Shown: positions 3,825 to 52,914, numbered from the stretch's first letter. The stretch is DNA of 64,000 nucleotides from an uncultured Gammaproteobacteria bacterium (GCA_964355955.1 CAYHFQ010000002.1:2338-66337); one strand, 5' to 3'. Notes: a model not told the origin generated them from the letters alone. Program-made: numbers and translations.

Positions 3825-3825
3825 T

Positions 3826-6272: not shown

Positions 6273-6293
6273 TGAAGTTATCCACGGCTCTCG

Positions 6294-6322: not shown

Positions 6323-6345
6323 TGAAGCAGTTTAAATACTGTCCT

Positions 6346-12048: not shown

Positions 12049-12052
12049 TAGT

Positions 12053-12652: not shown

Positions 12653-12711
12653 ATTGTTAATTTTATAAGTTTTTTTATAATTTAATACGGCATTAAATCA
12701 GCTCCTCCCGC

Positions 12712-13980: not shown

Positions 13981-13982
13981 TT

Positions 13983-14348: not shown

Positions 14349-14398
14349 TAAACAATAAAGAACAATTAGAAATTTGTGAGAAATATCAACTACCTTAA

Positions 14399-14686: not shown

Positions 14687-14693
14687 CTTAACT

Positions 14694-15122: not shown

Positions 15123-15131
15123 AAAAGTAAT

Positions 15132-15737
15132 ATGGTTAAAAAATCTGTCGAGTCCAGTCTAACCGCTGACAACGAATGCGCAATCTGCCAAACGGGGAGT
15201 ACTGTTGAAAAGTTCGTTGCTCCAGGCATGAAAAGCCAATTAAGTACTAAGCTTTGTTTAGAGTGCAAAGAAAAAGTCAATCAACATTTTTTAGCCGAAA
15301 CACAGGACTCAAATATCGTCAGAGCTATAACCTGGGGAGTTCTTGCGGCTGCAGTTGGTAGTGCTGTTTGGTACTTTGTAGCCATCTGGACGGGTTTAGA
15401 AATAGGCTATCTCGCTATTGGCTTAGGACTTTGGATCGGTTTAGCGGTTCATTTCGGATCGGGTAAAAAGAAGGGCCGTCGATTACAAATAATCAGTTTA
15501 ATTCTGACTTTCTTAGCTATTATAATTGCGAAGAAACTAATCTTTGATTATTATCTCAACGATTATCTTCAGGGTCATTTGGCAGATTTTCAGGATTTTG
15601 TAGTCGGTCAAAAGGTGAGTGTATCATTTTTTGCGGTTGAATTTTGGCAAAGTGTCGCGTCCATCAAGGGTCTACTAATTAGTCTGCTCGGACTTGTTGT
15701 GGCCTTTGTCATTTGCGCACCAAGAAAACTTAAATAA
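15132..15737 (+). CDS. membrane protein with an N-terminal zinc-ribbon-like CxxC...CxxC and 4-5 TM helices
   Basis: ECAICQTG...CLECKEKV, then hydrophobic helices. Last gene of the AT-rich array. Confidence 0.45.
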   Translation: MVKKSVESSLTADNECAICQTGSTVEKFVAPGMKSQLSTKLCLECKEKVNQHFLAETQDSNIVRAITWGVLAAAVGSAVWYFVAIWTGLEIGYLAIGLGLWIGLAVHFGSGKKKGRRLQIISLILTFLAIIIAKKLIFDYYLNDYLQGHLADFQDFVVGQKVSVSFFAVEFWQSVASIKGLLISLLGLVVAFVICAPRKLK

Positions 15738-37321: not shown

Positions 37322-40300
37322 CTATTTCACTCCAGCCGGAGTTACGCCAGACAAGAACCCAAAGTTATTGTTAGTACCGTCTCGATCCTGTACCTGGCCT
37401 AAGACAGACCTCATTCCTGCGGCATCATAAACAACAGCATGATCGTAATAGCCGGTATCAAGGTTAACCAGACCCTTCACATTCATGGACTTAGCGATTA
37501 CGGCCTCTTCATAAAGCGTCATCGGCTGTGAGAAGTCAATAATACCGAATGTGCCGTCTTTGAAAGTAGCTATTGCTCGACGCTTATCCCTAACATTACT
37601 CGAGTTTCCAGCCACTGCCAATTCCCCATCGTCGACCAATAGATGCCCAGACATCATATCGATTTTATTCTTTTTAGCTAAACTGAGTAGCGTTGAAAAA
37701 TCCTCCAAATTCTTACGGAAAGCCAATGGTTCTGCGGTCTCATTGCTATCCAAGTCATGTTTAGTTAGCTTATCACGGTTCACAATTATCATGTGTCCTT
37801 CAGCATCTACAATTACCGCGCCATCACGATTAGAAATTAGATAGTTCACCACACTTCCGTTGTCGATAGCTAATTCTGCCGGCTTCATAGCGCCTGTCGT
37901 GTAAGCACCGACGCTTTCCGCTACCAAGGCACCATCCGGGTAATTATCGCGCATAACCTGCTCAGTCAACCCACCGCCAACTTTGACTGTATAATCAACA
38001 GTCGCTCCCTTGCTTGGGTCGCCAATTACAACCGTAGCCAATTCTTTGCCATCAGTGCGCCAAGTTACCATTCTGAAACCAGCTTTGAGTTTCTTGGAAC
38101 TACGTCTTACCTCCGGCGTTATCGACGCCCATTCATCACGCATGACCCCTGCAGATAGTAATCGATCAAAACCTTTATTTAATACATATCCAAAATTACC
38201 ATCTTTTAAACTGCGGGTAGTCTTGCTAAGACTTCCCTCGGTAATTGGAATATTTGCCCCAGCATCTTGCAACTGAGCAATAATATCGGCCGCCCGCCTA
38301 TCACCAGTATCCGTCTCCAGGCCTTCGGTATTAAAAAATTCTAAGATTTTCTGCACCTGGAAAGACCCTAACATTGTGTACATACCAAGTACATCACTAG
38401 GTATGCCTCTACCATCAGCCTTTAAATAATTTTTGGCAAAAGTGGTTTTCTGGTTAATATTGTCCCAAGTCACCGGTTCACCGTCAATTGCCCTTGTCCC
38501 AACATCAATCAATATTTTGTCTCCCGCCGCCGCGTCAATAGCCGCATTTATTTTTTTACGAATATCTTCAACTTTAGAAATATCATTAACATCTATCCCT
38601 TGCGCTACTCCATGCCAATCAACTTGCTTCATGAATTCTGCCTCCAGAGTATTTGCAGCGTCTTTATTGATATCACGAATCAACGAGATCTTAGCCAGAC
38701 CCTGCGTAAACTCGGTAAAGTTGGCTGCTTTAGGCACGCTCACCTTAACAGTTGAATTAAATTGGCCCCTTCCCTCCTGCTGTCCAATGCCAAAGTTGAT
38801 AAATAATAGCTTGGCGTGTTCCGACTCTAGATTCTCGTCTGTAATGACATCAGCAAAACCGTAGACTTCGGTTGAATGTAAGGTATTGGCATAAGCCTGA
38901 GCCAAGCGAAAACCATTAATATTGGTCATTAACTTCAAGACGGCAGCTACGTCCGCCTCAGTCGAAGCGTTCATTTCTGTAGGAAATCCCTTAAAGTTTA
39001 GCTTACTAAAATAAAGTTCACCAGCATTTGTACCAAACTCCTGAGTTATATAGTTAGCCTGGGCCACTACCTCGTCCATGGTCTCCGGTGAGAGAGTAAA
39101 CTGCACGTTAGAATAATCAGCTCTTTCTGCTAATTTACTCATAAAACTCCGGTATTGGAAATACCCATACAATGGCTTGGTTTCCGCATCATACCGCGCC
39201 GAAAAAACCGGGAAACCGGAAAAATCTAGATGCTTAAGAATTTCACTCCTCGTCCTATCTGACTTAAACTGTCGCAATAACTCATCGATGTTTCTTAAAT
39301 CTTCTAATGACTTCGGCTGTTGCCAATTTCCCTCTAAGTGAACGTCCTCGTAGCCAGTAATTTTCAATCTATGCAAATTGCTCTCGAGAGAGGCAGTCTC
39401 TATAATTAAATTAATGTTATCTGCTTCCTTAAGATTATCTATCGTCCAATTAGTCGGATAACCAACTATCTTAACATTGATTCCGTCATCATACCTATTA
39501 ACTAAACTGGCCAGCAAAACCGTCGCAACGGGACTACTATTGATTTCCGCTAATGAAATTTGACCCTCAGATCTATGTTGCTTATCAACAGCGATAGCAA
39601 TATCACCTTTCACTAAACTAGGGTCATTCACTAAATACGCCATCCGTGCAGAATCATAGCCGGAAGATTGTTCAAGATCTTTGATCTTTTTAATTAGCTG
39701 AAAAAAATTATCATCAGTTACTACGCCGCCATAGAATTGCTCCCGAGCTTGCTTTAATAAAATAGCCTCAAGACCAACCTTCGGCTGAAAGTCTTCACTA
39801 TTTTTAATAGCCTTCAGAAAGTTCTCGTATTCTGGTAATCCTAAAGCGTCAAATTTAGGAAACGACGATGGATCAGCATTCTCAATATAGCGCGGGATTA
39901 AGGTTGCATAATAATCCTTAGAACCAACATCTTTTATTAAGGATTCTAACTGATTACCAATTTCTATAAACTGCTGCGGATTTTTAAAATCTAAGCCAGG
40001 AAATCCTTCAAAAGAGGCCGAGTTTAGCAAATGGGTGCCAATTTCAAAACTAAATTTACGGTCATCATAATGATCCCCTTGGAAATCATAATTCTGCGCT
40101 TTCGTAAGACCAAACTCCCAATACCCAATGTCATTAAGCTGCTTGGCAGCCGCCACAATATCTTTAGTGTATTTTTGATTAATTACGGTTGGGAACTCAT
40201 GCGGATCAAAAGTTAATGAATCAATATATTCATCGACTAAAAAAGAACTGTATCTAGCCCCATAATCATCTCTATCAGATTCTTGAACTGCTTTAAATAA

Positions 40301-41044
40301 AAAAGCTCTTAAGCGTGGTAAGTCTTTCTTGTGCAATTCATGAGGTAAATCCTTGAATTCAAAATGTTCAACTAAATTCGCCATCCCCCTACCCAACAAA
40401 TGCTGCATTTTTAAAAAATCAGTCTGACCGTCAATTTCAACGCTAGGTACACGCTGATTAGAATATTCCCTAGCCTGTCTGTACAGCAGCCCTTGAGCAC
40501 ATGTAGCTACATCGTTATACTCGACAATTTCTTCATGTTTTGGGTCTTTGATAACAATGTTATCAATAAACTTCCCCCAGGCTTCGCGTTCATCTAAATA
40601 TTGACGCAAGTCTTGCTCGTCTTTTAGTTCAACCGGTAGTCCATCTAATTTAAAGTGTTCTTCAAAAACGTAAGATAGTTCATTATTATCAAGCTTTGGA
40701 TAATAAGCATGAAGTTTTTTAATCAACTCAGGAATTCTCTCCCTCGTCACTGGTGTCGCCATCTCGCCGGCAAATTCTTTAACAAATTTAGCCTCTGCCT
40801 CGGCCCGCTCGTCAGTTACTTTGCTCGCTACTAATTCCAACTTTTTAAACGGTACATTCCTCTCCGCGAACTCTTCCGCTGTAGTTGCGTGCGGAGGAAC
40901 TGGATGTTCAATCTGGTTCCCTTCAGCCAAAGTCGTCAAACCGAGCAGAACGCCTTGCATCAGGCGACTCTTCCAGGTAAACCTAACTGGCTCTTTTCTC
41001 ACCTCAGGTGAATATCCACCTCTCTCACCATGGCCAAAACTCAT
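37322..41044 (-). CDS. giant hypothetical protein (1240 aa), paralog 1. Internal 'xxGFPxxxxxxxEAD' repeat modules. C-terminal ~330 aa resembles a phosphodiester-glycosidase (NAGPA-like) domain with a degenerate LDGGGS site
   Basis: No recognisable catalytic family in the N-terminal 800 aa. The C-terminus RRAIATFKDGTFGIIDFSQPMTLYEEAVIAKSMNVKGLVNLDTGYYD parallels the NAGPA-family pattern (R.A.G..dG.l.l..vdg...g.tl.ela.....ga.nAlNLDGGGS). An N-terminal hydrophobic segment (LMQGVLLGLTTLAEG) may be a signal anchor. Confidence 0.55.
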   Translation of the reverse strand: MSFGHGERGGYSPEVRKEPVRFTWKSRLMQGVLLGLTTLAEGNQIEHPVPPHATTAEEFAERNVPFKKLELVASKVTDERAEAEAKFVKEFAGEMATPVTRERIPELIKKLHAYYPKLDNNELSYVFEEHFKLDGLPVELKDEQDLRQYLDEREAWGKFIDNIVIKDPKHEEIVEYNDVATCAQGLLYRQAREYSNQRVPSVEIDGQTDFLKMQHLLGRGMANLVEHFEFKDLPHELHKKDLPRLRAFLFKAVQESDRDDYGARYSSFLVDEYIDSLTFDPHEFPTVINQKYTKDIVAAAKQLNDIGYWEFGLTKAQNYDFQGDHYDDRKFSFEIGTHLLNSASFEGFPGLDFKNPQQFIEIGNQLESLIKDVGSKDYYATLIPRYIENADPSSFPKFDALGLPEYENFLKAIKNSEDFQPKVGLEAILLKQAREQFYGGVVTDDNFFQLIKKIKDLEQSSGYDSARMAYLVNDPSLVKGDIAIAVDKQHRSEGQISLAEINSSPVATVLLASLVNRYDDGINVKIVGYPTNWTIDNLKEADNINLIIETASLESNLHRLKITGYEDVHLEGNWQQPKSLEDLRNIDELLRQFKSDRTRSEILKHLDFSGFPVFSARYDAETKPLYGYFQYRSFMSKLAERADYSNVQFTLSPETMDEVVAQANYITQEFGTNAGELYFSKLNFKGFPTEMNASTEADVAAVLKLMTNINGFRLAQAYANTLHSTEVYGFADVITDENLESEHAKLLFINFGIGQQEGRGQFNSTVKVSVPKAANFTEFTQGLAKISLIRDINKDAANTLEAEFMKQVDWHGVAQGIDVNDISKVEDIRKKINAAIDAAAGDKILIDVGTRAIDGEPVTWDNINQKTTFAKNYLKADGRGIPSDVLGMYTMLGSFQVQKILEFFNTEGLETDTGDRRAADIIAQLQDAGANIPITEGSLSKTTRSLKDGNFGYVLNKGFDRLLSAGVMRDEWASITPEVRRSSKKLKAGFRMVTWRTDGKELATVVIGDPSKGATVDYTVKVGGGLTEQVMRDNYPDGALVAESVGAYTTGAMKPAELAIDNGSVVNYLISNRDGAVIVDAEGHMIIVNRDKLTKHDLDSNETAEPLAFRKNLEDFSTLLSLAKKNKIDMMSGHLLVDDGELAVAGNSSNVRDKRRAIATFKDGTFGIIDFSQPMTLYEEAVIAKSMNVKGLVNLDTGYYDHAVVYDAAGMRSVLGQVQDRDGTNNNFGFLSGVTPAGVK

Positions 41045-41073
41045 ATGCGTTTATTATAACACGAATATTTTAT

Positions 41074-44000
41074 CTATTCCTGTGCGGTCTGATAGACCAT
41101 CGGCATACCTGTCAAAAAAGCAAACTTGTTATTCGTTCCATCCTGATCCTGTTGACCTAAGGCAAATAACATACCAGAAGCATCGTACACATTTGCATGA
41201 TCGTAATAACCAGTATCGAGGTTGACGAGACCTTTTACGTTCATCGACTTAGCAATAACCGCTTCCTCATACAGGGTCATTGGCTGCGAGAAATCTATCA
41301 AGCCAAAAGTGCCGTCCTTAAACGTCGCAATCGCCCGCCGCTTATCTCTGACGTTACTCGAGTTACTGGCTATAGCGAGTTCACCATTATCCACCAATAA
41401 ATGACCAGACATGACATCAATCTCGTTCTTGCGAGCTAACGTAAGTAGAGTCGAAAAATCCTCTAGCTTGTCGCGAAAAGCTAAATGATCAGCAGCCTCT
41501 TTACTATCCAGGTCATGCCTAGTTAGTTTATCGCGGTTAACGATATTCAAGGCCCCGTTGACATCAACAATCGCTAACCCATCGCGATCGGAAATTAAAT
41601 AGTTAACCACATAACCGTGGTTAATAGTTAACTCAGCTGGCTTCATCGCACCAGTCGTGTAAGCGCCCACGCTTTCGGCTACCAAGGCGCCTTCTGGGTA
41701 TTTGTCATGCATAACCTGTTCGGTTAACCCACCACCAACCTTCACGGTATAATCTACCGTCGCTCCTTTAGCTGGATCGCCTATCACCGCCTTCGCCAAC
41801 TCCTCACCATTATTTTTCCAATTAACAAAAGTATACCCAGCCTTAAGTCGCTCGGTTCGAGTTTCAAAAATAGGCGTAATACCCTGCCATTCTGGCCGCA
41901 TAACGTCGGCTGCTGCCAACTTGTTTTCAATTTTGCTCCAAATATAAGCTGGGTCACCCATGCTCCGCCAAGCCTTTTGCCAACTGCCCTCAGTCACAGG
42001 GATATTAGCTCCTGCCGCTTGCAAACGCTCAATAGTTTCCGCTACTCGGGCGTCACCTGTATCTGCGGCCAAGCCTTCAGCGTCAAAGAACTCTAAAATC
42101 TTCCGCACTTCAAAAGATCCCAACATCTTATAGACGCCTACTACATCTGGGTCTATACCGTATTGTTCAGCCTGTAAATAATGCTCAGCAAAAGTAATTT
42201 TTTTCTCCATTGTCAGCCAACTGACAGGTACGTTAGCGATATCTCTAATACCGACCTCCACAACCAGTCCGTCCCCTGCTGCAGCATCGATTGCCAAGTT
42301 AATATTCTGGCGTACCGACTCCACGGCCTCGATATTATCGATATCAACACCCTTGGCAACTCCTACCCAGTCTACTTGAGATAAAAATTTTTGCTTCAGC
42401 TCTTCCGCTACCTTATTATCCAAATCTTGCACTAACCCAATTTTCGCCAGGCCAGCAGTAAACTCGGCAAACGTTGTGGCTAGTGGAATAGAAACTTCAA
42501 ATTTTGGCTTTATTCCAGAATATCGAGTCTCTGGCGTAGAACCTATGCCGTAATACACTAATAATCTCTTAGTATTTTCATGCTCTAAATTCTCATCAGT
42601 AATAATTGGGGCGAAAGTATAAAGATGATCAGAATGTAGAGTTTTAGCATAACTACTGGCCAAATCTTCCTGAAAACTATTAATAAATAGTTTTAGAGTA
42701 GCGGCCACATCAGCTTCGGTTTTTTCATTAACTTCTTGTGGAAAGGCAGCAAAAGTTAGTTTGTTCAAATAGCCCCTAGCCTCACCAGTTCCAACAACAT
42801 CTACTAAATAGTCAAACTGCCGTTTTATTTCTGGTAGATTATCGGGAGTTACCGCAAAAATACAGTCAGAGAAGTCGGCTCGTTCCACTAAGCCCGGGCC
42901 GAACCAGCGACTGACCAGAGAGCCACGTTTTAATATGTTGGCCTTGTAACTTGCCGAAAAGACTGGAAATTTTGAATAATCAAGATGTCTAACAATTATT
43001 CGTCCAGTTCTTTCGTGCTCTTTTAAAATTGCCGCCAGATTCTCTAGATCATGCCAAGTTCTGGGCTGACTCAGTTCACCCTCAAACTTCACGTCACGAT
43101 AATTACTGGACCCGATGTCAATTTGGCTACCTAATAAATCAACAGCCTCGATTGCTTTCTCGATTTCCGTAATGTTTTCTAAAGTCCAAACCATCGGGAA
43201 GCCATTTAAGGAGATTTTATCCGGAATTCTGTAATTAAAAAATTGGTGAAAAAAGGCTTTACCTGTTGGGCTCTTTTCTACTTCTTGTAGTGCTAGTTCA
43301 CCAGGCAGCTTATGTTCAGCAGCAAGCGATAAGGTTAAGTCACCTCGCCAATGAGCAACTGGAGCCATCAAGGAAACGAGAAGTTCCGGTTCAACATCTG
43401 ACTCGGCATCAAGTCTAGCTAACTCAGCCAAGACAGTCTCTAAATTTTCAGGCGTTATATCCCCCAATTGCGCTTGGCGTCGAATAATCCTTATTAATTC
43501 GTTTCTTGTATTATCTCGATCCCAGGCAAAATCAATATTATTATCAAATTCAATAAAGAAAGTTTGATACGTTTCCAAGCCTGCAGTATTAAGTTCAGGG
43601 AAATTTCTTGTTTCAGCTAAATCTACAAAATGTGACGCCAGACTTGACCGATAAATCGTTGAACCAGCAGACTTACCGAGATCAGTCAAAATTCTAACAG
43701 TGTCCGCAAATTGCTCAGGGTGGTGAAAATCTAATGGATTAAAACCCTCAAATGTTGAACTCCTAAGTAGTTGATGGCCTAATCCAAAACTGACAGGAGC
43801 ATCTTTATTCACCCAATCACCATCTTGAATATCTAATGATTTGCTAATCCCATTCTTATAAAAGCTTATTTGGTTCAACTGTTTAGCGGCCGCTAAACTA
43901 TCTGCTGAATCATCCTTGTGGATGACTGTCGGAAATTCAGCTGAATCGAAGGTTAATGTGGCAATATATCTATCTAACAAAGCAGTCGTACAAGCATCGT

Positions 44001-44691
44001 CAACATGGTTCAATGCGCCACCACGACGAACCGCCTCCAATAAAAACGAACGTAAGCGTGGTAAATCACGCTTGTGAATTATATGCGGTAAACCTGCAAA
44101 TTCTATTTCTTCCACGCGTCGTAACTGATCGTCAACGGTTTCTACCTGCAACTGATAAAAATCTTCTTTGTCTCTAACTACTAGCTTAGGAATAGGACTC
44201 TTTTGGTAAGTATGTTCATGTTCATACAAGACGCTGAGCAACCATGAATCCTCCGACTTTTCAAAAATTTTCTTCCACGACTCGTGAGTTGCGAGATATT
44301 GACGAAAATCTTGCTCATTTTTTATTTTCTCGGGAAAACCGGCTAATTTGAATTGTAGTATGAAATCAGTGGGTATAGTGTCGTGAGGAGTGGCGAAAGA
44401 TTGAAGCTTTTTATCCAAAGCTGGCAACTGGTCAGCCGTAATCGGAGATTGTAATTCAACGGCAAAAACACGCTTGAATTCTTCACCTCGTTCAGCTAAA
44501 TCTTGAGCCGCTGGATTCGCGCCCACTTCACTTATTTTCACTAATGGCTCAGAACGCGCTGCAAATTCAGCTGTGGAAGTTTCACTATAGCCATCTGGTA
44601 CGTCCAACCGCTCTCCGGCAGCCATCGTCGCCAGACCAAGCAAAGCGCCCCGCATCAACCGGCTACCTCCCTCCCCTTGGCCAAACTTCAT
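41074..44691 (-). CDS. giant hypothetical protein (1205 aa), paralog 2 (tandem duplicate of 37322-41044)
   Basis: Same architecture. N-terminus MKFGQGEGG vs MSFGHGERGG. The C-terminal 350 aa are about 75% identical to paralog 1. The 29-nt gap to paralog 1 contains TATAAT. Confidence 0.55.
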   Translation of the reverse strand: MKFGQGEGGSRLMRGALLGLATMAAGERLDVPDGYSETSTAEFAARSEPLVKISEVGANPAAQDLAERGEEFKRVFAVELQSPITADQLPALDKKLQSFATPHDTIPTDFILQFKLAGFPEKIKNEQDFRQYLATHESWKKIFEKSEDSWLLSVLYEHEHTYQKSPIPKLVVRDKEDFYQLQVETVDDQLRRVEEIEFAGLPHIIHKRDLPRLRSFLLEAVRRGGALNHVDDACTTALLDRYIATLTFDSAEFPTVIHKDDSADSLAAAKQLNQISFYKNGISKSLDIQDGDWVNKDAPVSFGLGHQLLRSSTFEGFNPLDFHHPEQFADTVRILTDLGKSAGSTIYRSSLASHFVDLAETRNFPELNTAGLETYQTFFIEFDNNIDFAWDRDNTRNELIRIIRRQAQLGDITPENLETVLAELARLDAESDVEPELLVSLMAPVAHWRGDLTLSLAAEHKLPGELALQEVEKSPTGKAFFHQFFNYRIPDKISLNGFPMVWTLENITEIEKAIEAVDLLGSQIDIGSSNYRDVKFEGELSQPRTWHDLENLAAILKEHERTGRIIVRHLDYSKFPVFSASYKANILKRGSLVSRWFGPGLVERADFSDCIFAVTPDNLPEIKRQFDYLVDVVGTGEARGYLNKLTFAAFPQEVNEKTEADVAATLKLFINSFQEDLASSYAKTLHSDHLYTFAPIITDENLEHENTKRLLVYYGIGSTPETRYSGIKPKFEVSIPLATTFAEFTAGLAKIGLVQDLDNKVAEELKQKFLSQVDWVGVAKGVDIDNIEAVESVRQNINLAIDAAAGDGLVVEVGIRDIANVPVSWLTMEKKITFAEHYLQAEQYGIDPDVVGVYKMLGSFEVRKILEFFDAEGLAADTGDARVAETIERLQAAGANIPVTEGSWQKAWRSMGDPAYIWSKIENKLAAADVMRPEWQGITPIFETRTERLKAGYTFVNWKNNGEELAKAVIGDPAKGATVDYTVKVGGGLTEQVMHDKYPEGALVAESVGAYTTGAMKPAELTINHGYVVNYLISDRDGLAIVDVNGALNIVNRDKLTRHDLDSKEAADHLAFRDKLEDFSTLLTLARKNEIDVMSGHLLVDNGELAIASNSSNVRDKRRAIATFKDGTFGLIDFSQPMTLYEEAVIAKSMNVKGLVNLDTGYYDHANVYDASGMLFALGQQDQDGTNNKFAFLTGMPMVYQTAQE

Positions 44692-44700: not shown

Positions 44701-46185
44701 TTATACCATGCTCTTCAACACCCGATAAATCTCCACCATCGCCCAGGTATCGAGGGCACAGTAGTCGAGCAAGTCGCGTTTAATCTTCTCCTTGTCACTG
44801 GCTGACGTCGACGGAGATATAAGCTTCTCCCAGCGCTCACTCGCTTGGTCACCCTTACTGATATTCATCACCGAATAATTCAACGATGGTACTAAGACTG
44901 GCAAAACCTTTTTAATACTGGCACTCCCCTTAAAAGCCGGGTCGACGTAATAGCCATCAGAAAAAATCGTCATCAAGTCGAACATCTTGTCATTGATTTC
45001 TTTCAAGAACGCTGCATGCTCAGGGTGCAGTTCGGCGAGTTTGTCATTCCGTTGCTTCTCATAACTGCTATACCAACTAATCACCGTCCCATTCGGATCG
45101 AGGTCCTTCTTCATCCGTTCAATCAGCGGCAACGTCAAATCTCCCTCCGGCTCAGTTATAAGAAACTCGCGATGTTCTATCTCCCCATCTGCTCCCATAA
45201 TGTGCAAACTGTACTGGAAAGGAATCTGCTCATACGCCCCAAAGCCGTCAAACATCGGAATAGCGCTACTGTATCCCTCGTAATCAAAGAACTGGAGTGG
45301 AAACTGCAAGCCGTCTAACGCTTCTTTAATCGCGCCATGATCGATTATCGCCTTGCCGAGCACATAAGACTCATACTGCAACTTCTGCGCCACGTTCAAG
45401 TCCTCGGGATTATGAATGTCGGTCAGCGCTAACTCCCCGCGGTCCACCCAATCAATCAACTTCTTCTTGCTCATGCCAATCCGGTTAAAGTTATGCACGG
45501 AATATGCCGGCACCTCTGGATTAGAATAACCAAAGGTGGAGCACTGATTACTCCGTCCCTCGTACACGCAAGCGCAACCTTTGCTCTCCGGCATTTCCAA
45601 ACACTCTTTCATCTGCATCATCTCCCCCTTTACCTGTTCTTCCGCCGCTATCACCTCCCCCGTCAAATCAGCTTCGATGAATAACTCACAATTCACCACC
45701 TTGCCGTTTTTACGATATTCACGATTCAAATGAATAACGCCGGTCTTAACTACTTTCACCCCACACGCTTCAATGACAATCTTCTGAAAGGCCAAGTCGT
45801 TGACGTGGTGATGCGGCACTTTACGCTTCACCTCATTCGTCGCCTTCACCTCCCACAATTCCCAAGAATCGAGCTCGGTATTGAACTTCAAAATATCCGC
45901 CCGCAAATAAAACACATCGCTCTGAAACGTCGCCTGAAAAATCGTCTGCTTCTCCTCAATGGCCTTCTTGGTATCTATCACCGCCTGGCCATGATGACTC
46001 TCAATCAGCACTCCCTCAGGATACAGCAGCCGACACGCCGCCTCCGCCAAGTTACCATCCTCAATAATCTTCTTCTCAAAGTCGCTAAACTCCACGTCCG
46101 CAAACAACTCTGGCTTATGCTTCCGCAGCCACAGGTTCTTCTTACAAAAAGTGTATTCGAGGTAATCGGTTTTGGTGATGAGCAT
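44701..46185 (-). CDS. Cas4/RecB-like PD-(D/E)XK nuclease with Cys cluster fused to a C-terminal DEDD-like exonuclease-type domain (DUF2779-like architecture)
   Basis: N-terminal C...ADIL...ELWEVKAT (D/ExK), Cys cluster GCACVYEGRSNQC, C-terminal FFDYEGY...DTWAMVEIY. Ends 9 nt before giant paralog 2. Confidence 0.5.
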   Translation of the reverse strand: MLITKTDYLEYTFCKKNLWLRKHKPELFADVEFSDFEKKIIEDGNLAEAACRLLYPEGVLIESHHGQAVIDTKKAIEEKQTIFQATFQSDVFYLRADILKFNTELDSWELWEVKATNEVKRKVPHHHVNDLAFQKIVIEACGVKVVKTGVIHLNREYRKNGKVVNCELFIEADLTGEVIAAEEQVKGEMMQMKECLEMPESKGCACVYEGRSNQCSTFGYSNPEVPAYSVHNFNRIGMSKKKLIDWVDRGELALTDIHNPEDLNVAQKLQYESYVLGKAIIDHGAIKEALDGLQFPLQFFDYEGYSSAIPMFDGFGAYEQIPFQYSLHIMGADGEIEHREFLITEPEGDLTLPLIERMKKDLDPNGTVISWYSSYEKQRNDKLAELHPEHAAFLKEINDKMFDLMTIFSDGYYVDPAFKGSASIKKVLPVLVPSLNYSVMNISKGDQASERWEKLISPSTSASDKEKIKRDLLDYCALDTWAMVEIYRVLKSMV

Positions 46186-46192: not shown

Positions 46193-47191
46193 TTAATCGA
46201 TCAACTTTTTAATCTGCTTTTCAAAGTCCGACTCAATTGGCTGTGTTTTATTGAACATCTCATATTCAGATAATGCCTTTTTCTCAGCCGTAGCCATACT
46301 TACCACACCTTTATTCTTCAACACCTTAAACTTGTTAAAAGCTAAGAAATTACCAATACTCTCGGCAAACTCCTTCATGGTTAAAGTCTGTTCCTGTTCA
46401 ATCAAGTTTTCGACATAGTCAAAGTAGTTAGTTATCGTTCGCTCTAACCTCTTGATATCCTTCTCGGCTAAATAATTCTTAGCCACCACGACATCCGACG
46501 GCAACACCCGACCATCTGGACTATTCTTCCAACTCGTTAACCCCATATGCTTCTTGTTCCTATCGACCTTACTATGGATAATCTCCGCCGCCGTCTGACC
46601 AGTAATCGCAAAATGGAATAGGTTTTGTACGGTCGCAAAAAATGCTCGAGTCGTAGGTGACTTGGGATCATAGTCAACACTACACTCCGAAAATATATCC
46701 GTGATCTGCAAATACACCCTACGTTCACTCGCCCGAATCGACCGAACTCTCTCCAGCAACTCTCTAAAATAATCCTTACCAAATACTTCCTTACCCTGTT
46801 TCAACCTCTCATCATCCATGGCGAAACCTTTAACCACATACTCCTGCAGCACCCTTGTCGCCCATATCCTAAACTGTGTCGCCTGCACAGAATTCACCCG
46901 GTATCCAACGGAAATAATGGCGTCGAGGTTATAGAACTGAGTTTCATATTCCTTGCCATCAGCGGCAGTTATTCGAATTTTTCGAATAACTGCTTTTTCG
47001 CTTAACTCAGCAGTTTTAAACACCTCTTTAAGGTGATAATTGATAGTATTTGCCTCCACGCCAAATAACTCCGCCATCATCTTCTGCGTCAACCACAAAG
47101 TTTCCCCCTCTACCCGCACCTCAAACCTAACCGCTCCACTTGGGGTGGTGTAGAGGATAAAAGGGGTCAAGTTTGATTTTTCTTTAGCCAT
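46193..47191 (-). CDS. RhuM-family protein (virulence-protein RhuM family)
   Basis: N-terminus FILYTTPSGAVRFEVRVEGETLWLTQKMMAELFGV...YNLDAIISVGYRVNSVQATQFRIWATRVL matches the conserved RhuM N-domain. 332 aa. Confidence 0.75.
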   Translation of the reverse strand: MAKEKSNLTPFILYTTPSGAVRFEVRVEGETLWLTQKMMAELFGVEANTINYHLKEVFKTAELSEKAVIRKIRITAADGKEYETQFYNLDAIISVGYRVNSVQATQFRIWATRVLQEYVVKGFAMDDERLKQGKEVFGKDYFRELLERVRSIRASERRVYLQITDIFSECSVDYDPKSPTTRAFFATVQNLFHFAITGQTAAEIIHSKVDRNKKHMGLTSWKNSPDGRVLPSDVVVAKNYLAEKDIKRLERTITNYFDYVENLIEQEQTLTMKEFAESIGNFLAFNKFKVLKNKGVVSMATAEKKALSEYEMFNKTQPIESDFEKQIKKLID

Positions 47192-47311: not shown

Positions 47312-47800
47312 CTATAACTCCACATACTCCTCAACCGCCGTATCCTCCTGACTATACGCCATATCATCATCCTCGCTCTCACTCTCCCCACTACCCTGCC
47401 ACCCAGCGGCCAGCTGAGCTGGTCCCGCTACGCCCCTACCCAGCCCCTGAACACACTGTTCCTTAACTGCCCGCTCTGCCCACACTCTAAACCTATTCGC
47501 TAACCCCGGATTACTCCTATACCCAACGGCCAGTATCGCCTCCAAACTATAACTCTTAACCTCATAGTTCTTCCCATCCCTCGCAGTTATCCGGTTTTTC
47601 CGGACAACTGTATTCTCGCTAATCTCACCACCTTTAAACGCATTCTGTAAATGCTCGCTGACTGTTTTGATACTAATGCCGAACACCTCTCCTATTTCCT
47701 TTTGGGTGAGCCAGACGGTGCAATCCTCAACTCGTACATTAAAACGAATTGAACTGTTAGGTATTGCGTAGACAGCAGACTTAGGCTCAGAGGCAATCAC
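47312..47800 (-). CDS. stand-alone RhuM N-domain paralog with an acidic tail (truncated RhuM-like protein)
   Basis: AVYAIPNSSIRFNVRVEDCTVWLTQKEIGEVFGI...YSLEAILAVGYRSNPGLANRFRVWAERAV is about 50% identical to the N-domain of 46193-47191. The C-terminus is Glu/Asp-rich. Confidence 0.65.
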   Translation of the reverse strand: MIASEPKSAVYAIPNSSIRFNVRVEDCTVWLTQKEIGEVFGISIKTVSEHLQNAFKGGEISENTVVRKNRITARDGKNYEVKSYSLEAILAVGYRSNPGLANRFRVWAERAVKEQCVQGLGRGVAGPAQLAAGWQGSGESESEDDDMAYSQEDTAVEEYVEL

Positions 47801-47803
47801 ACT

Positions 47804-49654
47804 CTACAAAGCTAATCGACTCTTAAAAAACTCTCTTACATTCTCATCCACAAAATAAACATAACACCCCTTCATCCCACGAGTCATTAAGATCTTGTAT
47901 ATATTACGAACGTATTTATTAAGTTGATCTGGATTATTCTTCAGCGACTTCTTGCCGCTAGCATCTTTGTAAGAAGTCCAATTAGTTTTATATTCAAGTG
48001 TCTCTGAATCAAACTTCAAGTCACCGCCAACTATCACGCCCACATAATCAAACTCTAAGCCCTGTGACGTATGAATGCAGCCAACCTGGTCGAGGCCTCG
48101 AGGATCTATCGCCCAGGTAGTACCAACCTTACGAGAGTTCCAAGGCATTCTAAAATCGTGGCTCATTATCTCGACGTCAGCAACACCTCCATCAGCGTTG
48201 CCATCACGAATGGGCGTCCACTTCCAAGCATAACCAGCCACTATACGAGCGCTGTTACCTTCTGCCGATTTATCTTTAATAGCATCCCTAAGAGCATGCG
48301 GATCATCAAAGATTTGAAAATCAAAAGCCATCTTGTCCCAGCCATTAAAATTAGCTGTGGACTTGAGGTGTAAAACATCATTCAACCAATTGATATAACC
48401 TTCAGCTCCAGAACATCTGAATTGAGCAACTAAATCAACCGTATGAACTTTGGCACTAAATAGTTCTGCAACTCTGATTATTTCCTTTACTGTACCAATA
48501 TCTTCCGGTCTAATCGCCTGATCATCATCAACAAAGAATATACTTGTCTTAGCTGCCTTCACGATATCTTCTACTTGGTTTTGTCCGTAATATTGGTACG
48601 CTGTTTTATTCTTAAGACGATGAGCTTCGTCGACAATAACCACATCAAACGTGTCAGGCAATGCATCGACAAAACCAGCCGAACCCTTAAACAAATTCTT
48701 TAGACGGTTCTTCTTGTGCTCCTTGGCCAGTTTGTGAACGATTGTATCGCGAAATGAGGCGTTAGGAGCTACAAAGATGGTATTGAGCTCGTTCTTAAGC
48801 AATCCGCCAAGCAGATTGACTGAGATTACAGACTTGCCAGTGCCTGGGCCACCCTTAATAATTACTACTGATTTCTCCTTATTAGTTAGTGCTACCGAAC
48901 GAGCAGTCTCATAAGCCACCTTTTGCTCATCCAATAAAATAAACTCCTGGTTACCGCTAAACATACCAGCGACATGGTCAATCAACTTCTTGCTTGGCTT
49001 AATCTTACCGTATTCTATTTCGTAGAGAATCTCCTCGCCGTTACCTTTTCCAACATACTTCTTAAGAAACTGCTCGAGCTTAACCTGATCATTTTTGAAA
49101 TAAATAGGCGTCTCTTGAACTAACTCCTCATAAATACCGGTCGACAACGGCTCAGGCGAACGCTTTTCAAAATTATGTAGATAAGCGCAAGAAAATGGCG
49201 TCAGGTCCTTGGAATCAATATTCTCATTATAATCCTGTAAAAAATGCTTATAAGATTGGGCCTGATAGGATGGATGCGGCGTATCCCTAACTCCACCACC
49301 AAGATAGGTGCTCACAACTCCATCCTTCTCAGTTGCCTCAGCTGACTCCCACTGTTTGAGCTCGACTAAAATAAAGTTCTTGTTACCCTCTTCGTCATGT
49401 CCAGAAACGAAAAAGTCGATTCGGTTCGAGGTAGCAGGAATTACATACTCAATCAGAACTCCACAGCTCAGGTCCAGCTCGGCTTTTCGCACAACCCTCT
49501 CCATATACTGGAGCGAGTTCTCCCATGCTCGGCGTTCACTCGGAGCAACACGTCTCCCTAACATCCGCTGAAATTGCCCCTCAATAATCGGTGCAATCAT
49601 GTTCGAGTCGACGTCCTCTCTAAATCCGCCAATGGTGCTCTTATATAGAAACAT
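47804..49654 (-). CDS. DUF2075-type protein: N-terminal PD-(D/E)XK-like nuclease domain, P-loop ATPase, UvrD-C-like domain (defence-island ATPase-nuclease)
   Basis: RIDFFVSG...ILVELKQW (nuclease-like), Walker A GGPGTGKS, Walker B VVIVDEAHRL, C-terminal TSQGLEFDYVGVIVG (UvrD_C-type). Confidence 0.7.
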   Translation of the reverse strand: MFLYKSTIGGFREDVDSNMIAPIIEGQFQRMLGRRVAPSERRAWENSLQYMERVVRKAELDLSCGVLIEYVIPATSNRIDFFVSGHDEEGNKNFILVELKQWESAEATEKDGVVSTYLGGGVRDTPHPSYQAQSYKHFLQDYNENIDSKDLTPFSCAYLHNFEKRSPEPLSTGIYEELVQETPIYFKNDQVKLEQFLKKYVGKGNGEEILYEIEYGKIKPSKKLIDHVAGMFSGNQEFILLDEQKVAYETARSVALTNKEKSVVIIKGGPGTGKSVISVNLLGGLLKNELNTIFVAPNASFRDTIVHKLAKEHKKNRLKNLFKGSAGFVDALPDTFDVVIVDEAHRLKNKTAYQYYGQNQVEDIVKAAKTSIFFVDDDQAIRPEDIGTVKEIIRVAELFSAKVHTVDLVAQFRCSGAEGYINWLNDVLHLKSTANFNGWDKMAFDFQIFDDPHALRDAIKDKSAEGNSARIVAGYAWKWTPIRDGNADGGVADVEIMSHDFRMPWNSRKVGTTWAIDPRGLDQVGCIHTSQGLEFDYVGVIVGGDLKFDSETLEYKTNWTSYKDASGKKSLKNNPDQLNKYVRNIYKILMTRGMKGCYVYFVDENVREFFKSRLAL

Positions 49655-49669
49655 ACACGATAAATTCTT

Positions 49670-50719
49670 TTAAATACGTGATAATCTTTTTAATACATTT
49701 TGATACTTACTGATAAATTCACCAGTCTCATAAGGTTCACCCGAATAGAACATATCCTTATCCACGTTATAATCTTCTGAAAGCTGCAATGCGTTGCGTA
49801 AACTCTTCATGACACCCTTATCTACCTCTTCACCCTGTTTAATTTTGTTTGCAGATAGATGATACGATAAGGTTTGATGCCTTTTAAAAAATTTATTTCC
49901 GTTCGTTATTGTTCTTTCAAAACACTCAGTTTGGTTATTATATATACAATTAAAATTACGTAGAATACGAGTAAGTTTCATTAAAGTTACTGGTCGTTGA
50001 CCTTTTTTCATTATTTTAGCATTTTTTACAATCCAAAGCGCGAGATTATATATCACACCATCCTCACTCAAACCGTTATCGTGTTGAGCGATCTTCATTG
50101 AAATTTGGAATAATTCGTCATCATTACATATTAAAGAAACATGATGTCGGTCAAGAAAAACTAGAAGAGAGACGAGGGCGGATCTCTTATTACCATTATG
50201 GAATGAATGGTTATTTGAGATAGCATACATTAATGCAGCCCCAGATGTTTCTACAGTTGGATATTTGTAATTATATCCAAATGATGTTTGAGGGTGAAAA
50301 ACAGCAGACTCTAACAAGTTAATATTCTTAATACCGTCAGGAGAAATAGGATCCTCTGATAGCGCGGCATCCTTCGCTAATTCAGAGTGAATGGCGATAA
50401 TCTCAGAAGTAGTCAGATAAACAGGCTCGTCTAATCTCTTGCCTATAGTAGAATAATCGAAATACTCTACTTTAGCATTTTTCTTGGCTTCTTTTCGCGT
50501 CAAAGAAATATCTGCAGGATTTACATTAGATATAGTTTTTAGGATAAAAGCTAAATGCTTCTGCCTGATTACACTATTTCGATTAATTAAATAATCAAAC
50601 TTATCACTGCTAGCGCCAAGATCCCAAAGCAATATTAATAGATTATCAGGGTCGATGTTATAATTTCTTGCAATTCGGCCAATTGTTCTTTTTGTCGATT
50701 TCATATTTTGCATTCTCAA
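49670..50719 (-). CDS. Fic/Doc-family protein with a Doc-type active-site motif (HSFHNGNKRSALV), flanked by extra N- and C-terminal regions
   Basis: HxFx(D/N)GNKR is the Doc-class signature of the Fic fold. 349 aa. Very AT-rich codon usage. Confidence 0.7.
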   Translation of the reverse strand: MRMQNMKSTKRTIGRIARNYNIDPDNLLILLWDLGASSDKFDYLINRNSVIRQKHLAFILKTISNVNPADISLTRKEAKKNAKVEYFDYSTIGKRLDEPVYLTTSEIIAIHSELAKDAALSEDPISPDGIKNINLLESAVFHPQTSFGYNYKYPTVETSGAALMYAISNNHSFHNGNKRSALVSLLVFLDRHHVSLICNDDELFQISMKIAQHDNGLSEDGVIYNLALWIVKNAKIMKKGQRPVTLMKLTRILRNFNCIYNNQTECFERTITNGNKFFKRHQTLSYHLSANKIKQGEEVDKGVMKSLRNALQLSEDYNVDKDMFYSGEPYETGEFISKYQNVLKRLSRI

Positions 50720-50720
50720 C

Positions 50721-51071
50721 CTATAACTCCGTATACTTCACCGCACTCCCCTTACTCTTCTCCACCGGATACTTCTCCCCATTCTTCGCCAGTTTGCGTT
50801 CGAAGGCGTCACTCAGGTCAATCCCTAAGTCATGCGTCATGAGGAGTACCCAGTAGAATACGTCCGCCAGTTCGTCCGCCACGTCGGCCTTGTGCTCCGC
50901 GAGGTACTTGGTCAAAGCATCGCCATTCCGCCACTGGAAGTGTTCAAGTACCTCTGTGGCCTCTAGTTGGAGCGAAATAGCGCAGTCCTTGGGATTATGA
51001 AACTGCCGCCAATTCCTAGCGTCGCGAAAGGAGGTGACGAGGGCGGTCAGTTCGGCGATGGATTTAGGCAT
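50721..51071 (-). CDS. MazG-like nucleotide pyrophosphohydrolase (YpjD-type, all-alpha NTP-PPase)
   Basis: WRQFHNPKD...SLQLEATEVLEHFQW...ELADVFYWVL...GIDL...KYP, the EExxE/D motifs of small MazG proteins. Starts 1 nt after the Doc gene stop. Confidence 0.8.
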   Translation of the reverse strand: MPKSIAELTALVTSFRDARNWRQFHNPKDCAISLQLEATEVLEHFQWRNGDALTKYLAEHKADVADELADVFYWVLLMTHDLGIDLSDAFERKLAKNGEKYPVEKSKGSAVKYTEL

Positions 51072-51181
51072 ATGTTGTGGATAAGTTGACTTTTACTCAA
51101 ATATACACTATTCTAACACATGTAAGCCCTCGGGTTTGCCCGATTTTGATCAAGATCCGTCCCTCGGGGCGGATCTTTGAG

Positions 51182-51781
51182 TTAATGGCCAACTTTTAAA
51201 CGATAGTCCAAATCTTGGGCAAAGATTATTTCATCTAAATATCCCTGCTTTTTAGCGTCAAAAACTTCTCGACCTATATGGTCACGCGCCCCAATTACAA
51301 TACACGATTTTTGATATTCGTCTTTCAAATAGCGTACCGCGTGCATTAAATCCCCATCCCCTGAGAAAAGTACCAATGAATCATAGGAATCACGATACTT
51401 CACTAGGTCGATTGCCATTTCAACATCCAAATCACACTTCTTTTCAAACCCAATCTTATTATCAGAAGAATGGATATATTTAACTCGCTTAGTGACAATT
51501 TCAAATTTATTCCATTTGGCTTTTTCCAAAATCAATCGCGACCATTCAGAAAGTGCTGACGACCTTTCATCTTTGCCAAAATCTGAACCATAGTAAAAAC
51601 GTCTATTCTGTCTATTACCGAGCGAAAAGTGCTTGACCAACTGAGCCAATTTACCAATATCAATATTCCAACCTAGACTATTCTTCCATTTCTCTACATT
51701 ACCAAAATCAACAATAACCATCGTTCGGTCAAGCTTAACTGCATATGTATCGAGATATTTCTTAATCTGTTCCTTATTCAT
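51182..51781 (-). CDS. NYN-domain (LabA-like, PIN-related) predicted RNase
   Basis: VIVDFGNVEKW ... LVLFSGDGDLMHAV, the NYN acidic motifs. 199 aa. Confidence 0.65.
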   Translation of the reverse strand: MNKEQIKKYLDTYAVKLDRTMVIVDFGNVEKWKNSLGWNIDIGKLAQLVKHFSLGNRQNRRFYYGSDFGKDERSSALSEWSRLILEKAKWNKFEIVTKRVKYIHSSDNKIGFEKKCDLDVEMAIDLVKYRDSYDSLVLFSGDGDLMHAVRYLKDEYQKSCIVIGARDHIGREVFDAKKQGYLDEIIFAQDLDYRLKVGH

Positions 51782-51797
51782 AATCCAGATCCATCTT

Positions 51798-51858
51798 ACA
51801 CCATTTTCGTGATATCACGAAAATGGTGTGTCGGTATGTTCCAATCTGGAACATACCG
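51798..51858. promoter_or_regulatory. two strong palindromes just upstream of NYN: a 32-bp perfect palindrome acaccattttcgtgat|atcacgaaaatggtgt and cggtatgttcca-atc-tggaacataccg
   Basis: Read directly. The first starts 17 nt upstream of the NYN start codon. Confidence 0.6.
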
Positions 51859-51940
51859 GGTTTCCCTTTATTTAATGATTTGTTGACGTCAACAAAATGA
51901 TAATTCATTGGTGAATTGATAAAAATGTGCAATAAATAAT

Positions 51941-52030
51941 AAACGTGAAAAACATCAAAATTTAGTCATAATTCACGTTTATCTTGACTATAAACGTGAA
52001 AAATGGTAAAATATCGTCATAATTCACGTT
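51941..52030 (+). promoter_or_regulatory. Fic promoter/operator: two tandem ~40-bp units (aaacgtgaaaaa-N-gtcataattcacgtt, each an inverted repeat) around a TTGACT-17-TAAAAT promoter (51984-52012)
   Basis: Unit 1 is 51941-51980 and unit 2 is 51992-52030. Further palindromes: ttgacgtcaa (51882-51891), aattcattggtgaatt (51902-51917). Confidence 0.55.
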
Positions 52031-52041
52031 AATTATTTGCT

Positions 52042-52914
52042 ATGGCTAGGCTCAAGTCGTATCTAAAAGAGATTGATAATTTGCGTAAACGCTATTTTTT
52101 GGCTTTACCAGGCAAAGAATCGCTCGTGAAACTAATTAGTGAAGCTGAGGTTTCGGAGCAAGTTTATAACTCAAATGCTATTGAGAATAGTACGTTAACC
52201 TTGGAAGAGACCGAGAAGATTTTGCTTAAATTGGACCTCGATCGCTACATCAGCGAACGAGAACTATTTGAAGCTAAGAATCTAGCTCAGGTGACTAACT
52301 ACATGGAGATACGGGCTCATGAGCAGCCACTCAATGAGGACGTGGTGCTCCTGCTCCACAAAATGCTGTTAACGAATATTCGTACCGATATCGCCGGACG
52401 GTTCCGAGCGGCAGACGAATGGGTTCGTGTTGGTAGCTATATTGCTGCCAACCCAGCTGAAATTTACGAGCTTCTGGCTAACATGTTTACAGAATATGCC
52501 GCCAATCCGCAGCTGCACATTGTTAAACGTCTAGCTAGGTTCCATTTAACCTTTGAGCATATTCACCCGTTTGTTGACGGCAATGGTCGCATGGGCCGCA
52601 CCATGAATAACTACCTCTTGCTACGTGACGGTTATGTGCCGCTCACTATTCTTTTCGCTACCCGCGAGTTGTATTACCAGGCTTTCAAGGAGTTTGATGC
52701 GACAGGTTCAACGTCGACTATGGAAGATATCATCGGTTTAGCCCTACGAGAAAGTTACCACAAGCGCTTGGCATATCTTGAAGGTAAAAAGATTATTACC
52801 CTCAATGAATATGGGAAGATAAACAATATCACGCTTTCTGCCCTACTCAATAAAGCCGCACGCCAAACTATTGAAGCTTTTCGCGAGAAAGGGACGTGGA
52901 AGATTGGAGTTTAA
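52042..52914 (+). CDS. Fic-family protein (class II, with N-terminal inhibitory-helix motif SNAIEN and canonical HPFVDGNGRMGR)
   Basis: The HPFx(D/E)GNGR active-site loop is exact. (S/T)xxxE(G/N) is present near residue 44. 290 aa. Confidence 0.85.
   Translation: MARLKSYLKEIDNLRKRYFLALPGKESLVKLISEAEVSEQVYNSNAIENSTLTLEETEKILLKLDLDRYISERELFEAKNLAQVTNYMEIRAHEQPLNEDVVLLLHKMLLTNIRTDIAGRFRAADEWVRVGSYIAANPAEIYELLANMFTEYAANPQLHIVKRLARFHLTFEHIHPFVDGNGRMGRTMNNYLLLRDGYVPLTILFATRELYYQAFKEFDATGSTSTMEDIIGLALRESYHKRLAYLEGKKIITLNEYGKINNITLSALLNKAARQTIEAFREKGTWKIGV

Follow-up and report, generated by a model that had tools for sequence, protein, structure and literature searches.

A 64,000-nucleotide stretch of DNA from an uncultured Gammaproteobacteria bacterium (GCA_964355955.1, CAYHFQ010000002.1:2338-66337; hereafter the window) contains, between positions 47312 and 52914, a cluster of genes which a preliminary description had considered a compact candidate defence/toxin island. 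Comparative analysis of this region indicated that it is probably a mosaic of independent modules located in a variable toxin/defence hotspot, whose sole conserved unit, a pair of genes encoding a MazG-like protein and a DUF2075 protein, is split by a Doc-type gene. The linkage of the MazG-like and DUF2075 genes is the only conserved one at this locus, and it had not been singled out in the preliminary description.

Both genes of the pair are located on the minus strand. The MazG-like gene (positions 50721–51071) encodes a 116-amino acid (aa) all-alpha nucleoside triphosphate (NTP) pyrophosphohydrolase of the DCTPP1/RS21-C6 type (PF12643, E = 4.5e-19), and the DUF2075 gene (positions 47804–49654) encodes a 616-aa SF1B helicase of the DUF2075/Schlafen-group-3 type with an N-terminal PD-(D/E)XK-type signature (PF09848, E = 2.1e-94). 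The two genes are co-oriented, but a 1,035-bp gene encoding a long Doc protein intervenes (positions 49670–50704, minus strand; 344 aa from ATG, or 349 aa from a TTG codon at 50719).

The MazG-like and DUF2075 genes form a conserved pair

Gene order was compared in two sets of loci. For the DUF2075-anchored set, a metagenome scan yielded at least 575 confirmed loci, of which 80 were kept; for the Doc-anchored set, a 27-sequence alignment led to 224 loci in species-representative genomes, and 80 were likewise kept. The window proteins were run by phmmer against all open reading frames (ORFs) of these loci, and the neighbouring proteins were clustered all-against-all.

This analysis revealed a MazG-like ORF directly upstream of the DUF2075 gene, on the same strand, in 71 of the 80 DUF2075 loci (in one locus it is found downstream), with the two ORFs overlapping by 4 nt in 48 loci. 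Four of the nine loci without an upstream MazG-like ORF are truncated by contig ends; the five with sufficient upstream sequence contain no detectable MazG, and one of them (L131) has a NUDIX gene in this position. The possibility that the NUDIX protein replaces MazG in L131 is weakened by two other loci (L125 and L157), in which the NUDIX gene is part of an upstream PLD-helicase-DUF3427 module and MazG is retained.

Of 8,000 candidates scored for the DUF2075 family, which is very large, at least 7,898 were full-length matches of approximately 615 aa, and the top 120 matches are 58–79% identical. In the nearest relatives of the window protein (P0082 and P0083, 77–78% identity) the MazG-like gene lies 5 nt upstream of the DUF2075 gene and Doc is absent. 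Genes annotated in RefSeq as "nucleotide pyrophosphohydrolase" and "DUF2075" are also found together on a plasmid of Priestia aryabhattai and on an archaeal (Halalkalicoccus) plasmid. Moreover, when 74 loci are compared, the identity of the MazG-like protein to its counterpart in the window correlates with that of the DUF2075 protein (r = 0.50, p = 4.5e-6), and the best MazG match is located in the same locus as the best DUF2075 match. This co-variation, together with the linkage observed in the relatives, indicates that the MazG-like and DUF2075 genes of the window are probably a cognate pair split by Doc.

The neighbours of the cassette include PLD-SF2 helicase-DUF3427 genes (detected by phmmer in 8 of the 80 loci), GmrSD, MrcB_N, NUDIX/MutT, type I restriction-modification (RM) and Cas1/Cas2 genes. 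The proximity of DUF2075 to DUF3427 modification-dependent enzymes has been noted before (Lutz et al., PMC6765204). An array consisting of NUDIX, PLD + SF2 helicase + DUF3427, MazG and DUF2075 is recurrent (L125, positions 4266–9857; L157, positions 1244–6784; L124; L131), and it represents two "NTP pyrophosphohydrolase + helicase-nuclease" pairs arranged in tandem. On the P. aryabhattai plasmid (NZ_CP083270.1; L166, positions 4548–7866), a gene encoding MrcB_N, a McrB-like modified-cytosine reader, overlaps the start of the MazG-like gene by 4 nt, and this locus is flanked by genes encoding MutT, a restriction endonuclease, type I RM proteins and an ABC-three-component system protein.

In one further locus (L087, positions 1872–10349), a 5.8-kb insertion is present at the same MazG/DUF2075 junction that is occupied by Doc in the window. 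The inserted DNA carries a HicB-family gene, a gene encoding a 412-aa class II-type Fic protein, a gene for a membrane protein and further ORFs without Pfam assignment. The DUF2075 protein of this locus is extended at its C-terminus by an S24-type region.

The remaining genes of the cluster are not conserved neighbours

The six ORFs of the preliminary description were recovered at the same positions, their domain assignments were confirmed with Pfam, PADLOC and NCBIfam, and the motifs quoted for them are present in the translations. The view that toxin- and defence-type genes are clustered here was also borne out, since five of the six proteins (all except MazG), as well as the product of an adjacent full-length RhuM gene, match PADLOC models, namely PDC-S05, PDC-S04/SoFic, PDC-S23 (Doc part), Nhi/AbiO/PDC-S41 (weak) and NYN/HEC-09 (weak). 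The proposal that five or six of these genes constitute a single novel multi-gene system was not supported, as this combination of genes was seen only in near-identical contigs. The exact DUF2075 protein of the window is recorded in five contigs, and the gene order is identical in both of those examined (L001 and L002), which indicates that one organism was sampled repeatedly.

It had been proposed to search for the MazG-Doc-DUF2075 adjacency in other genomes. In the Doc-anchored set, MazG, DUF2075 and NYN were found beside Doc in none of the 80 loci, and a RhuM-type gene was present in a single locus, 6.5 kb from the Doc homologue. Analogously, neither NYN nor Doc is a conserved neighbour in any of the 80 DUF2075 loci (phmmer); the one weak Doc match lies inside a distant RhuM-type ORF (L091), and RhuM occurs at three of these loci, in each case at a distance.

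These data bear directly on the alternative that the block ending with RhuM-N and beginning with either MazG or NYN is one co-transcribed defence system, in which Doc, MazG, DUF2075 and RhuM-N cooperate. Such a system would account for the location of MazG, Doc, DUF2075 and RhuM-N on one strand with gaps of 3–16 nt, for the lack of a terminator-like site within this run, for the links of every family to defence or toxins, and for the occurrence of the same arrangement in L001 and L002, which share the DUF2075 protein. However, L001 and L002 represent one genome in near-identical copies, the genes concerned do not accompany one another in either set of loci, the closest DUF2075 relatives lack Doc, and the GC content at third codon positions (GC3), which varies from 0.28 to 0.70 across adjacent genes, points to separate acquisitions. 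The single-system explanation is thus very unlikely, and the mosaic described above is favoured. The unit that can be tested is the MazG + DUF2075 pair, and the five-gene block should not be cloned as one.

The tight packing reported for the minus-strand genes was confirmed for Doc/DUF2075 (15 nt) and DUF2075/RhuM-N (3 nt), but the 1-nt gap between MazG and Doc requires the TTG start; with the ATG codon at 50704, which is the start used by public gene calls, this gap amounts to 16 nt. The NYN gene does not belong to the packed run, as a 110-nt spacer with hairpins lies between it and MazG. The description of these genes as very AT-rich is appropriate for Doc (GC 0.34) and NYN (0.36), but not for MazG (0.54) or RhuM-N (0.50). 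A scan for promoters and terminators gave counts that did not differ from those of shuffled sequence, and the transcription units are therefore not established. An Rfam scan of the whole window produced no match, and the window contains no tRNA genes.

The locus is a cargo-swapping hotspot

The GC3 values along the adjacent genes are 0.34 (NYN), 0.70 (MazG), 0.28 (Doc), 0.43 (DUF2075), 0.52 and 0.50, with values of approximately 0.57–0.62 for the flanking core genes. In a related contig (P0202), other cargo is located between a Fic gene and the DUF2779-ABC transporter-fmt-def-priA genes: Bro-N, RhuM, an orphan MazG, a glycosyltransferase, an IS1595 transposase, SocA_Panacea and a member of the RhuM-N family. 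In two other loci (L127 and L086), MazG and DUF2075 are followed by one or two other genes and then by DUF2779, and both Doc and RhuM are absent. The spread of GC3 and the presence of different cargo at the same site in related genomes identify the locus as a variable, cargo-swapping hotspot with conserved genes as its borders. The genome that carries it is predicted to be small and probably of the Patescibacteria/CPR; if the source is indeed a CPR bacterium, the hotspot, along with an RHS toxin locus elsewhere in the window, illustrates how large a share of a ~1-Mb genome is given over to conflict genes.

The minus-strand run of the window extends past RhuM to genes encoding a DUF2779 protein, two NAGPA-domain proteins of approximately 1,200 aa and an ABC transporter. 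The DUF2779 protein (positions 44701–46185, minus strand; 494 aa; PF11074, E = 3.7e-38) has a Cas4/RecB-like N-terminus (PADLOC Cas4, 1.1e-5). Its homologues are encoded downstream of the variable region in L086 (positions 8571–10031), L127 (positions 5402–5869) and the P0202 contig; DUF2779 is thus the conserved anchor at the downstream border of the hotspot, and it may or may not also be linked functionally to the cassette.

The MazG-like and DUF2075 proteins

The closest matches of the MazG-like protein in the PDB are an archaeal pyrophosphatase (4qgp, 7e-19) and mouse/human DCTPP1 (RS21-C6; 6sqw and 2a3q, 3.7e-15). The window protein shares with these enzymes the all-alpha fold family, the ExxE...ExxD site (its acidic residues lie within EATEVLE and ELADV) and the C-terminal KYP...G..KY tail. 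Across 60 distinct partner sequences, the metal-binding residues E37, E40, E43, E67 and D70 show at least 98% conservation. DCTPP1 belongs to the house-cleaning enzymes and prefers 5-modified dCTP; the window protein differs from it in its prokaryotic origin and in its genetic coupling to a putative nuclease-helicase.

The DUF2075 protein contains the motifs GGPGTGKS (Walker A) and VVIVDEAHRL. Residues E69, D80 and E98-L-K100, as well as the Walker A and DEAH motifs, are invariant in 43 homologues. A PDB sequence search with this protein gave no match, and its AlphaFold2 model (predicted local distance difference test, pLDDT, 85) resembles the SF1B helicases Dda, Upf1, Pif1, RecD2 and Dna2, and also SLFN11. 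The N-terminal region is modelled as a beta-rich alpha/beta core with no domain-specific structural match. Since Pfam (E ≤ 10) gives only a sub-threshold hit to PDDEXK_13 (E = 0.19) for this region, its assignment as a nuclease domain is putative.

A subfamily of DUF2075 proteins of approximately 760–800 aa carries a C-terminal LexA/UmuD-like Peptidase_S24 domain at residues ~644–762 (P0107, P0160 and P0196; L106, positions 8001–10373; and similar proteins). The presence of this domain suggests that these proteins may be controlled by RecA or DNA damage.

Known counterparts of the cassette

The MazG + DUF2075 cassette is an already published candidate without a demonstrated function or name. 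Among the candidate systems listed by Millman et al. (2022; Table S2, 10.1101/2022.05.11.491447), "Pyrophosphatase" consists of a MazG-like pyrophosphatase and a DUF2075 protein. This is the same pair, comprising a 98–108-aa MazG-like protein and a 619–643-aa DUF2075 protein, with the N-terminal E/D/ExK region and the helicase motifs in common with the window protein. The window DUF2075 protein is 43% identical to that of SG192 over 394 aa of the partial published sequence (E = 1e-112). The two cases differ in that the pair is split by the 1-kb Doc gene in the window. The literature search yielded no paper in which DUF2075 and MazG are mentioned together in the main text and no later characterization of the pair.

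Nhi of Staphylococcus epidermidis (SERP2475) is composed of a PD-(D/E)XK nuclease and an SF1B helicase, and its closest predicted structural homologues are Dda, Upf1 and Dna2 (Bari et al., 10.1101/776245). Nhi-like (nuclease + DUF2075; B. cereus, SG141), together with SoFic, was validated as a defence system (10.1101/2022.05.11.491447). The window DUF2075 protein has the SF1B helicase/DUF2075 domain of these proteins and, with its putative N-terminal PD-(D/E)XK nuclease region, would share the Nhi-like architecture. However, the PADLOC Nhi model fits only its first helicase lobe and not its full length (residues 238–386 against 181–306 of the 470 model positions, E = 6.2e-13). Furthermore, Nhi and Nhi-like are single genes, whereas the DUF2075 family of the window is almost always paired with MazG.

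A long Doc protein inserted between MazG and DUF2075

The Doc-type Fic assignment of the protein encoded between MazG and DUF2075 is based on matches to PF02661 (4.3e-11) and TIGR01550 (49.9 bits; cutoff 38.65) and on the motif HSFHNGNKRSA. The predicted layout of this protein comprises a small helical N-terminal domain resembling a helix-turn-helix (HTH), a Doc kinase-type Fic domain, a HicA-like alpha-beta-beta-beta-alpha domain and a C-terminal helix. Pfam searches (E ≤ 10) with the N- and C-terminal regions gave sub-threshold matches only. The extreme C-terminal helix is highly conserved in the 27-sequence alignment, and it could serve as an in-cis Phd-like inhibitor. A description of the HTH + Doc + HicA-like arrangement was not found in the literature.

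The window protein has the catalytic motif and fold of P1 Doc, but it is three times longer, with an N-terminal HTH-like domain, a C-terminal HicA-like domain and the conserved terminal helix. P1 Doc is accompanied by Phd, whereas the window contains no Phd-like gene beside Doc; with flanking spacers of only 16 and 15 nt, there is no room for a Phd-type antitoxin gene. The locus provides the definition of a long form of Doc that lacks a partner of the Phd type. In PDC-S23, RhuM-N is fused to Doc. In the window, Doc fits positions 225–308 of this profile and the RhuM-N protein positions 7–122, but they are encoded by separate, non-adjacent genes, and the N-terminus of the window Doc differs from that of PDC-S23.

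All-against-all clustering of the neighbours within 4 kb in the 80 Doc loci revealed no conserved partner. The most frequent neighbouring families were type I methylase-like (6 loci) and transposase-like (5 loci) proteins. The loci come from Patescibacteria, Actinomycetota, Chloroflexota, Planctomycetota and Acidobacteriota, among other groups. The idea that Doc is part of a larger system was rejected on these grounds, and the lack of a conserved partner indicates that it is a solitary, mobile gene. Visual inspection of the junctions of the Doc insertion showed no target-site duplication. The Doc homologue of L004 adjoins a serine recombinase gene. In L064 (positions 8725–15290), a long Doc homologue, divided into two ORFs by a frameshift, is located between hsdS- and hsdR-like ORFs (recognized by eye) of a type I RM operon. 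With Doc placed between MazG and DUF2075, the locus offers a clean natural case of a toxin gene inserted within the operon of another candidate system.

Possible function of the cassette and of Doc

The relationship of the MazG-like protein to DCTPP1 and the nature of the neighbouring genes (DUF3427, GmrSD, MrcB_N, MutT/NUDIX, type I RM and Cas1/Cas2) suggest a working model involving modified deoxynucleoside triphosphates (dNTPs). MazG and DUF2075 form a two-gene cassette, translationally coupled elsewhere, and in the window a stand-alone Doc-type toxin gene has probably been inserted exactly into its short spacer. According to the model, DUF2075 would act as an ATP-driven nuclease-helicase on foreign or aberrant DNA, as presumed by analogy with Nhi, and its MazG partner would hydrolyse non-canonical dNTPs, most plausibly 5-modified dCTP. 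Removal of such dNTPs could starve phages that build modified DNA. It could also keep modified bases out of the host DNA, so that self DNA would be spared by the nuclease and by neighbouring modification-dependent restriction enzymes. Doc would block translation by phosphorylation of EF-Tu, like P1 Doc, and its N- and C-terminal domains might replace a separate Phd antitoxin as a regulator or sensor.

In its broadest form, this model would make MazG + DUF2075 a genuine and very widespread, though still unvalidated, defence system of bacteria, archaea and plasmids, combining modified-dNTP destruction with a nuclease-helicase and perhaps requiring phages with modified DNA for its activity to be observed. 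Its spacer would be a recurrent docking site for solitary toxins riding on its expression (Doc in the window; HicB and Fic, plus others, in L087), and the long Doc would represent a new single-chain, self-regulated toxin or sensor. We put this forward tentatively, as a possible rather than a probable interpretation.

Several facts weigh against the explanation favoured here. SG192 (from Bacillus firmus LK28) is marked "x" under "observed defense", i.e. it gave no defence, and for SG193 (from B. thuringiensis Lr3/2) "cloning failed" (10.1101/2022.05.11.491447); an antiviral role of the cassette is thus unproven. In addition, the difference between the GC3 of MazG (0.70) and that of DUF2075 (0.43) is odd for a co-inherited pair. 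A link to modified nucleotides would explain the negative result obtained with a standard phage panel. The published negative may therefore not be final: the neighbouring genes and the DCTPP1-type MazG suggest that modified-base phages, or a self-protection assay, might be needed.

The main rival explanation is that the cassette is not antiviral at all and serves the maintenance of DNA and of the nucleotide pool, with MazG sanitizing dNTPs and DUF2075 acting as a repair or fork-processing nuclease-helicase, its location within a variable region being incidental. The lack of observed defence by SG192 fits this explanation, as do the S24 domain of the LexA/UmuD type (residues 644–762) in some members, suggestive of RecA/DNA-damage control, the nearby MutT and NUDIX genes, the rarity of the DUF2075 family in phage genomes, its occurrence in tiny genomes and archaea, and the house-cleaning role of DCTPP1. 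However, a maintenance function is difficult to reconcile with the patchy, horizontal distribution of the family (members from unrelated lineages are 60–79% identical, and the family also occurs on plasmids), with its RM, GmrSD, DUF3427, CRISPR and toxin-antitoxin neighbours, and with an architecture like that of the validated defence proteins Nhi and Nhi-like. The pair was, moreover, chosen as a candidate defence system by Millman et al. (Table S2), and little weight can be given to one negative test in which a heterologous host was challenged with a limited set of phages. For these reasons we consider a maintenance role unlikely.

That MazG and DUF2075 are instead a toxin-antitoxin-like pair, in which MazG neutralizes a toxic nuclease-helicase (e.g. 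by destroying a nucleotide activator) and Doc is an extra toxin under the same control, is most improbable. In favour of such a pair, the large effector gene is preceded by a small gene to which it is coupled in translation, the failure to clone SG193 could mean toxicity, and genes of the toxin-antitoxin type lie in the same junction in both L087 (HicB and Fic) and the window (Doc). However, the strictly conserved catalytic site of MazG argues for an enzyme and not a mere binding antitoxin, and MazG is undetectable in the five loci with enough upstream sequence, one of which has NUDIX in its place.

Solitary modules in the hotspot

The NYN gene, the short RhuM-N gene, the full-length RhuM gene and the class II Fic gene are further solitary modules of the hotspot.

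The NYN gene (positions 51182–51781, minus strand) encodes a predicted LabA-like RNase of 199 aa (PF01936, positions 1–137 of 145, E = 7.8e-16), which also matches the PADLOC models HEC-09 (1.5e-5) and NYN (4.7e-5) weakly. It belongs to a rare subfamily, for which 1.84 billion cluster representatives included 13 at E ≤ 1e-30, and NYN is absent from the vicinity of all 80 DUF2075 and all 80 Doc loci. It is a solitary gene, probably with its own transcription unit.

The short RhuM-N gene (positions 47312–47800, minus strand) encodes a 162-aa protein with a RhuM N-terminal domain, resembling a winged HTH, and an acidic tail. It matches the short PDC-S05 models of PADLOC (down to 9.8e-34), and only its N-terminal ~120 aa correspond to RhuM. 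Although previously regarded as a fragment, it belongs to a conserved family of 147–162-aa proteins with a conserved acidic tail: the homologues (147–154 aa) show 51–74% identity at 91–96% coverage and contain the tail AYSQE(D/E)T(A/V)VEEYVE, which, judging from this conservation, is under selection. The full-length RhuM protein (positions 46193–47191, minus strand; 332 aa), encoded in the same hotspot beyond the cluster delimited earlier, matches PF13310 (positions 1–248 of 252, E = 9.5e-103) and, end to end, PDC-S05 (E = 6.5e-147). Contrary to the earlier statement that RhuM modules flank DUF2075, both are located downstream of it, and they are only 49% identical over 112 aa. In view of this level of identity, and of the conserved short family with its conserved tail, the possibility that RhuM-N arose by decay or recent duplication of the neighbouring RhuM gene was rejected. 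A role of RhuM-N as an adaptor of DUF2075 likewise found no support, since the nearest DUF2075 relatives have no adjacent RhuM-N gene and the RhuM-N family member of the related contig (P0202) lies beside unrelated genes, following SocA_Panacea and an 83-aa ORF. No mechanistic study of RhuM was present among the papers found.

The class II Fic gene (positions 52042–52914, plus strand) is transcribed divergently from the others and encodes a protein of 290 aa (Pfam Fic, E = 8.2e-20). Its translation contains the Fic motif HPFVDGNGRMGR and the N-terminal inhibitory sequence SNAIEN, in agreement with the class assigned to it earlier. The protein matches the PADLOC models PDC-S04 (E = 7.7e-33) and SoFic (1.9e-28), but it is not a SoFic equivalog, as the score with NCBIfam NF046030 is 42.5 bits against a cutoff of 550. 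A Fic gene occurs at the same border of the hotspot in the related contig, and the Fic gene of the window is an independent module.

The intergenic region between the NYN and Fic genes (positions 51782–52041) contains operator-like palindromes, consistent with its earlier description as palindrome-rich. A perfect 32-bp palindrome (positions 51798–51829) and a hairpin with a 12-bp stem (positions 51832–51858) are accompanied by two copies of the inverted repeat ATAAACGTGAA-N22-TTCACGTT(T/A)AT (positions 51939–51982 and 51990–52033, the latter imperfect). Both copies overlap promoter-like hexamers upstream of the Fic gene, and from their sequence these tandem inverted repeats look like candidate operators for some regulator.

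Other genes of the window

Two tandem genes for proteins of approximately 1,200 aa, which show only a weak C-terminal match to NAGPA (phosphodiester glycosidase), are located at positions 37322–44691, between the DUF2779 and ABC transporter genes. This pair has an island-like low GC content and is not present at that position in the related contig. Another toxin-type gene (positions 6313–12652) encodes a 1,911-aa polymorphic toxin with SpvB, FG-GAP and RHS repeats and a C-terminal Tox-GHH (HNH/EndoVII) nuclease domain, and it is followed by an immunity-type gene of the SUKH-1 (SMI1/KNR4) family. The subsequent low-GC stretch (0.38–0.47), which reaches position ~15737, contains ORFs without assignment and a gene for a Cys_rich_CPCC protein; the ORFs following the SUKH-1 gene are possibly orphan toxin/immunity cassettes.

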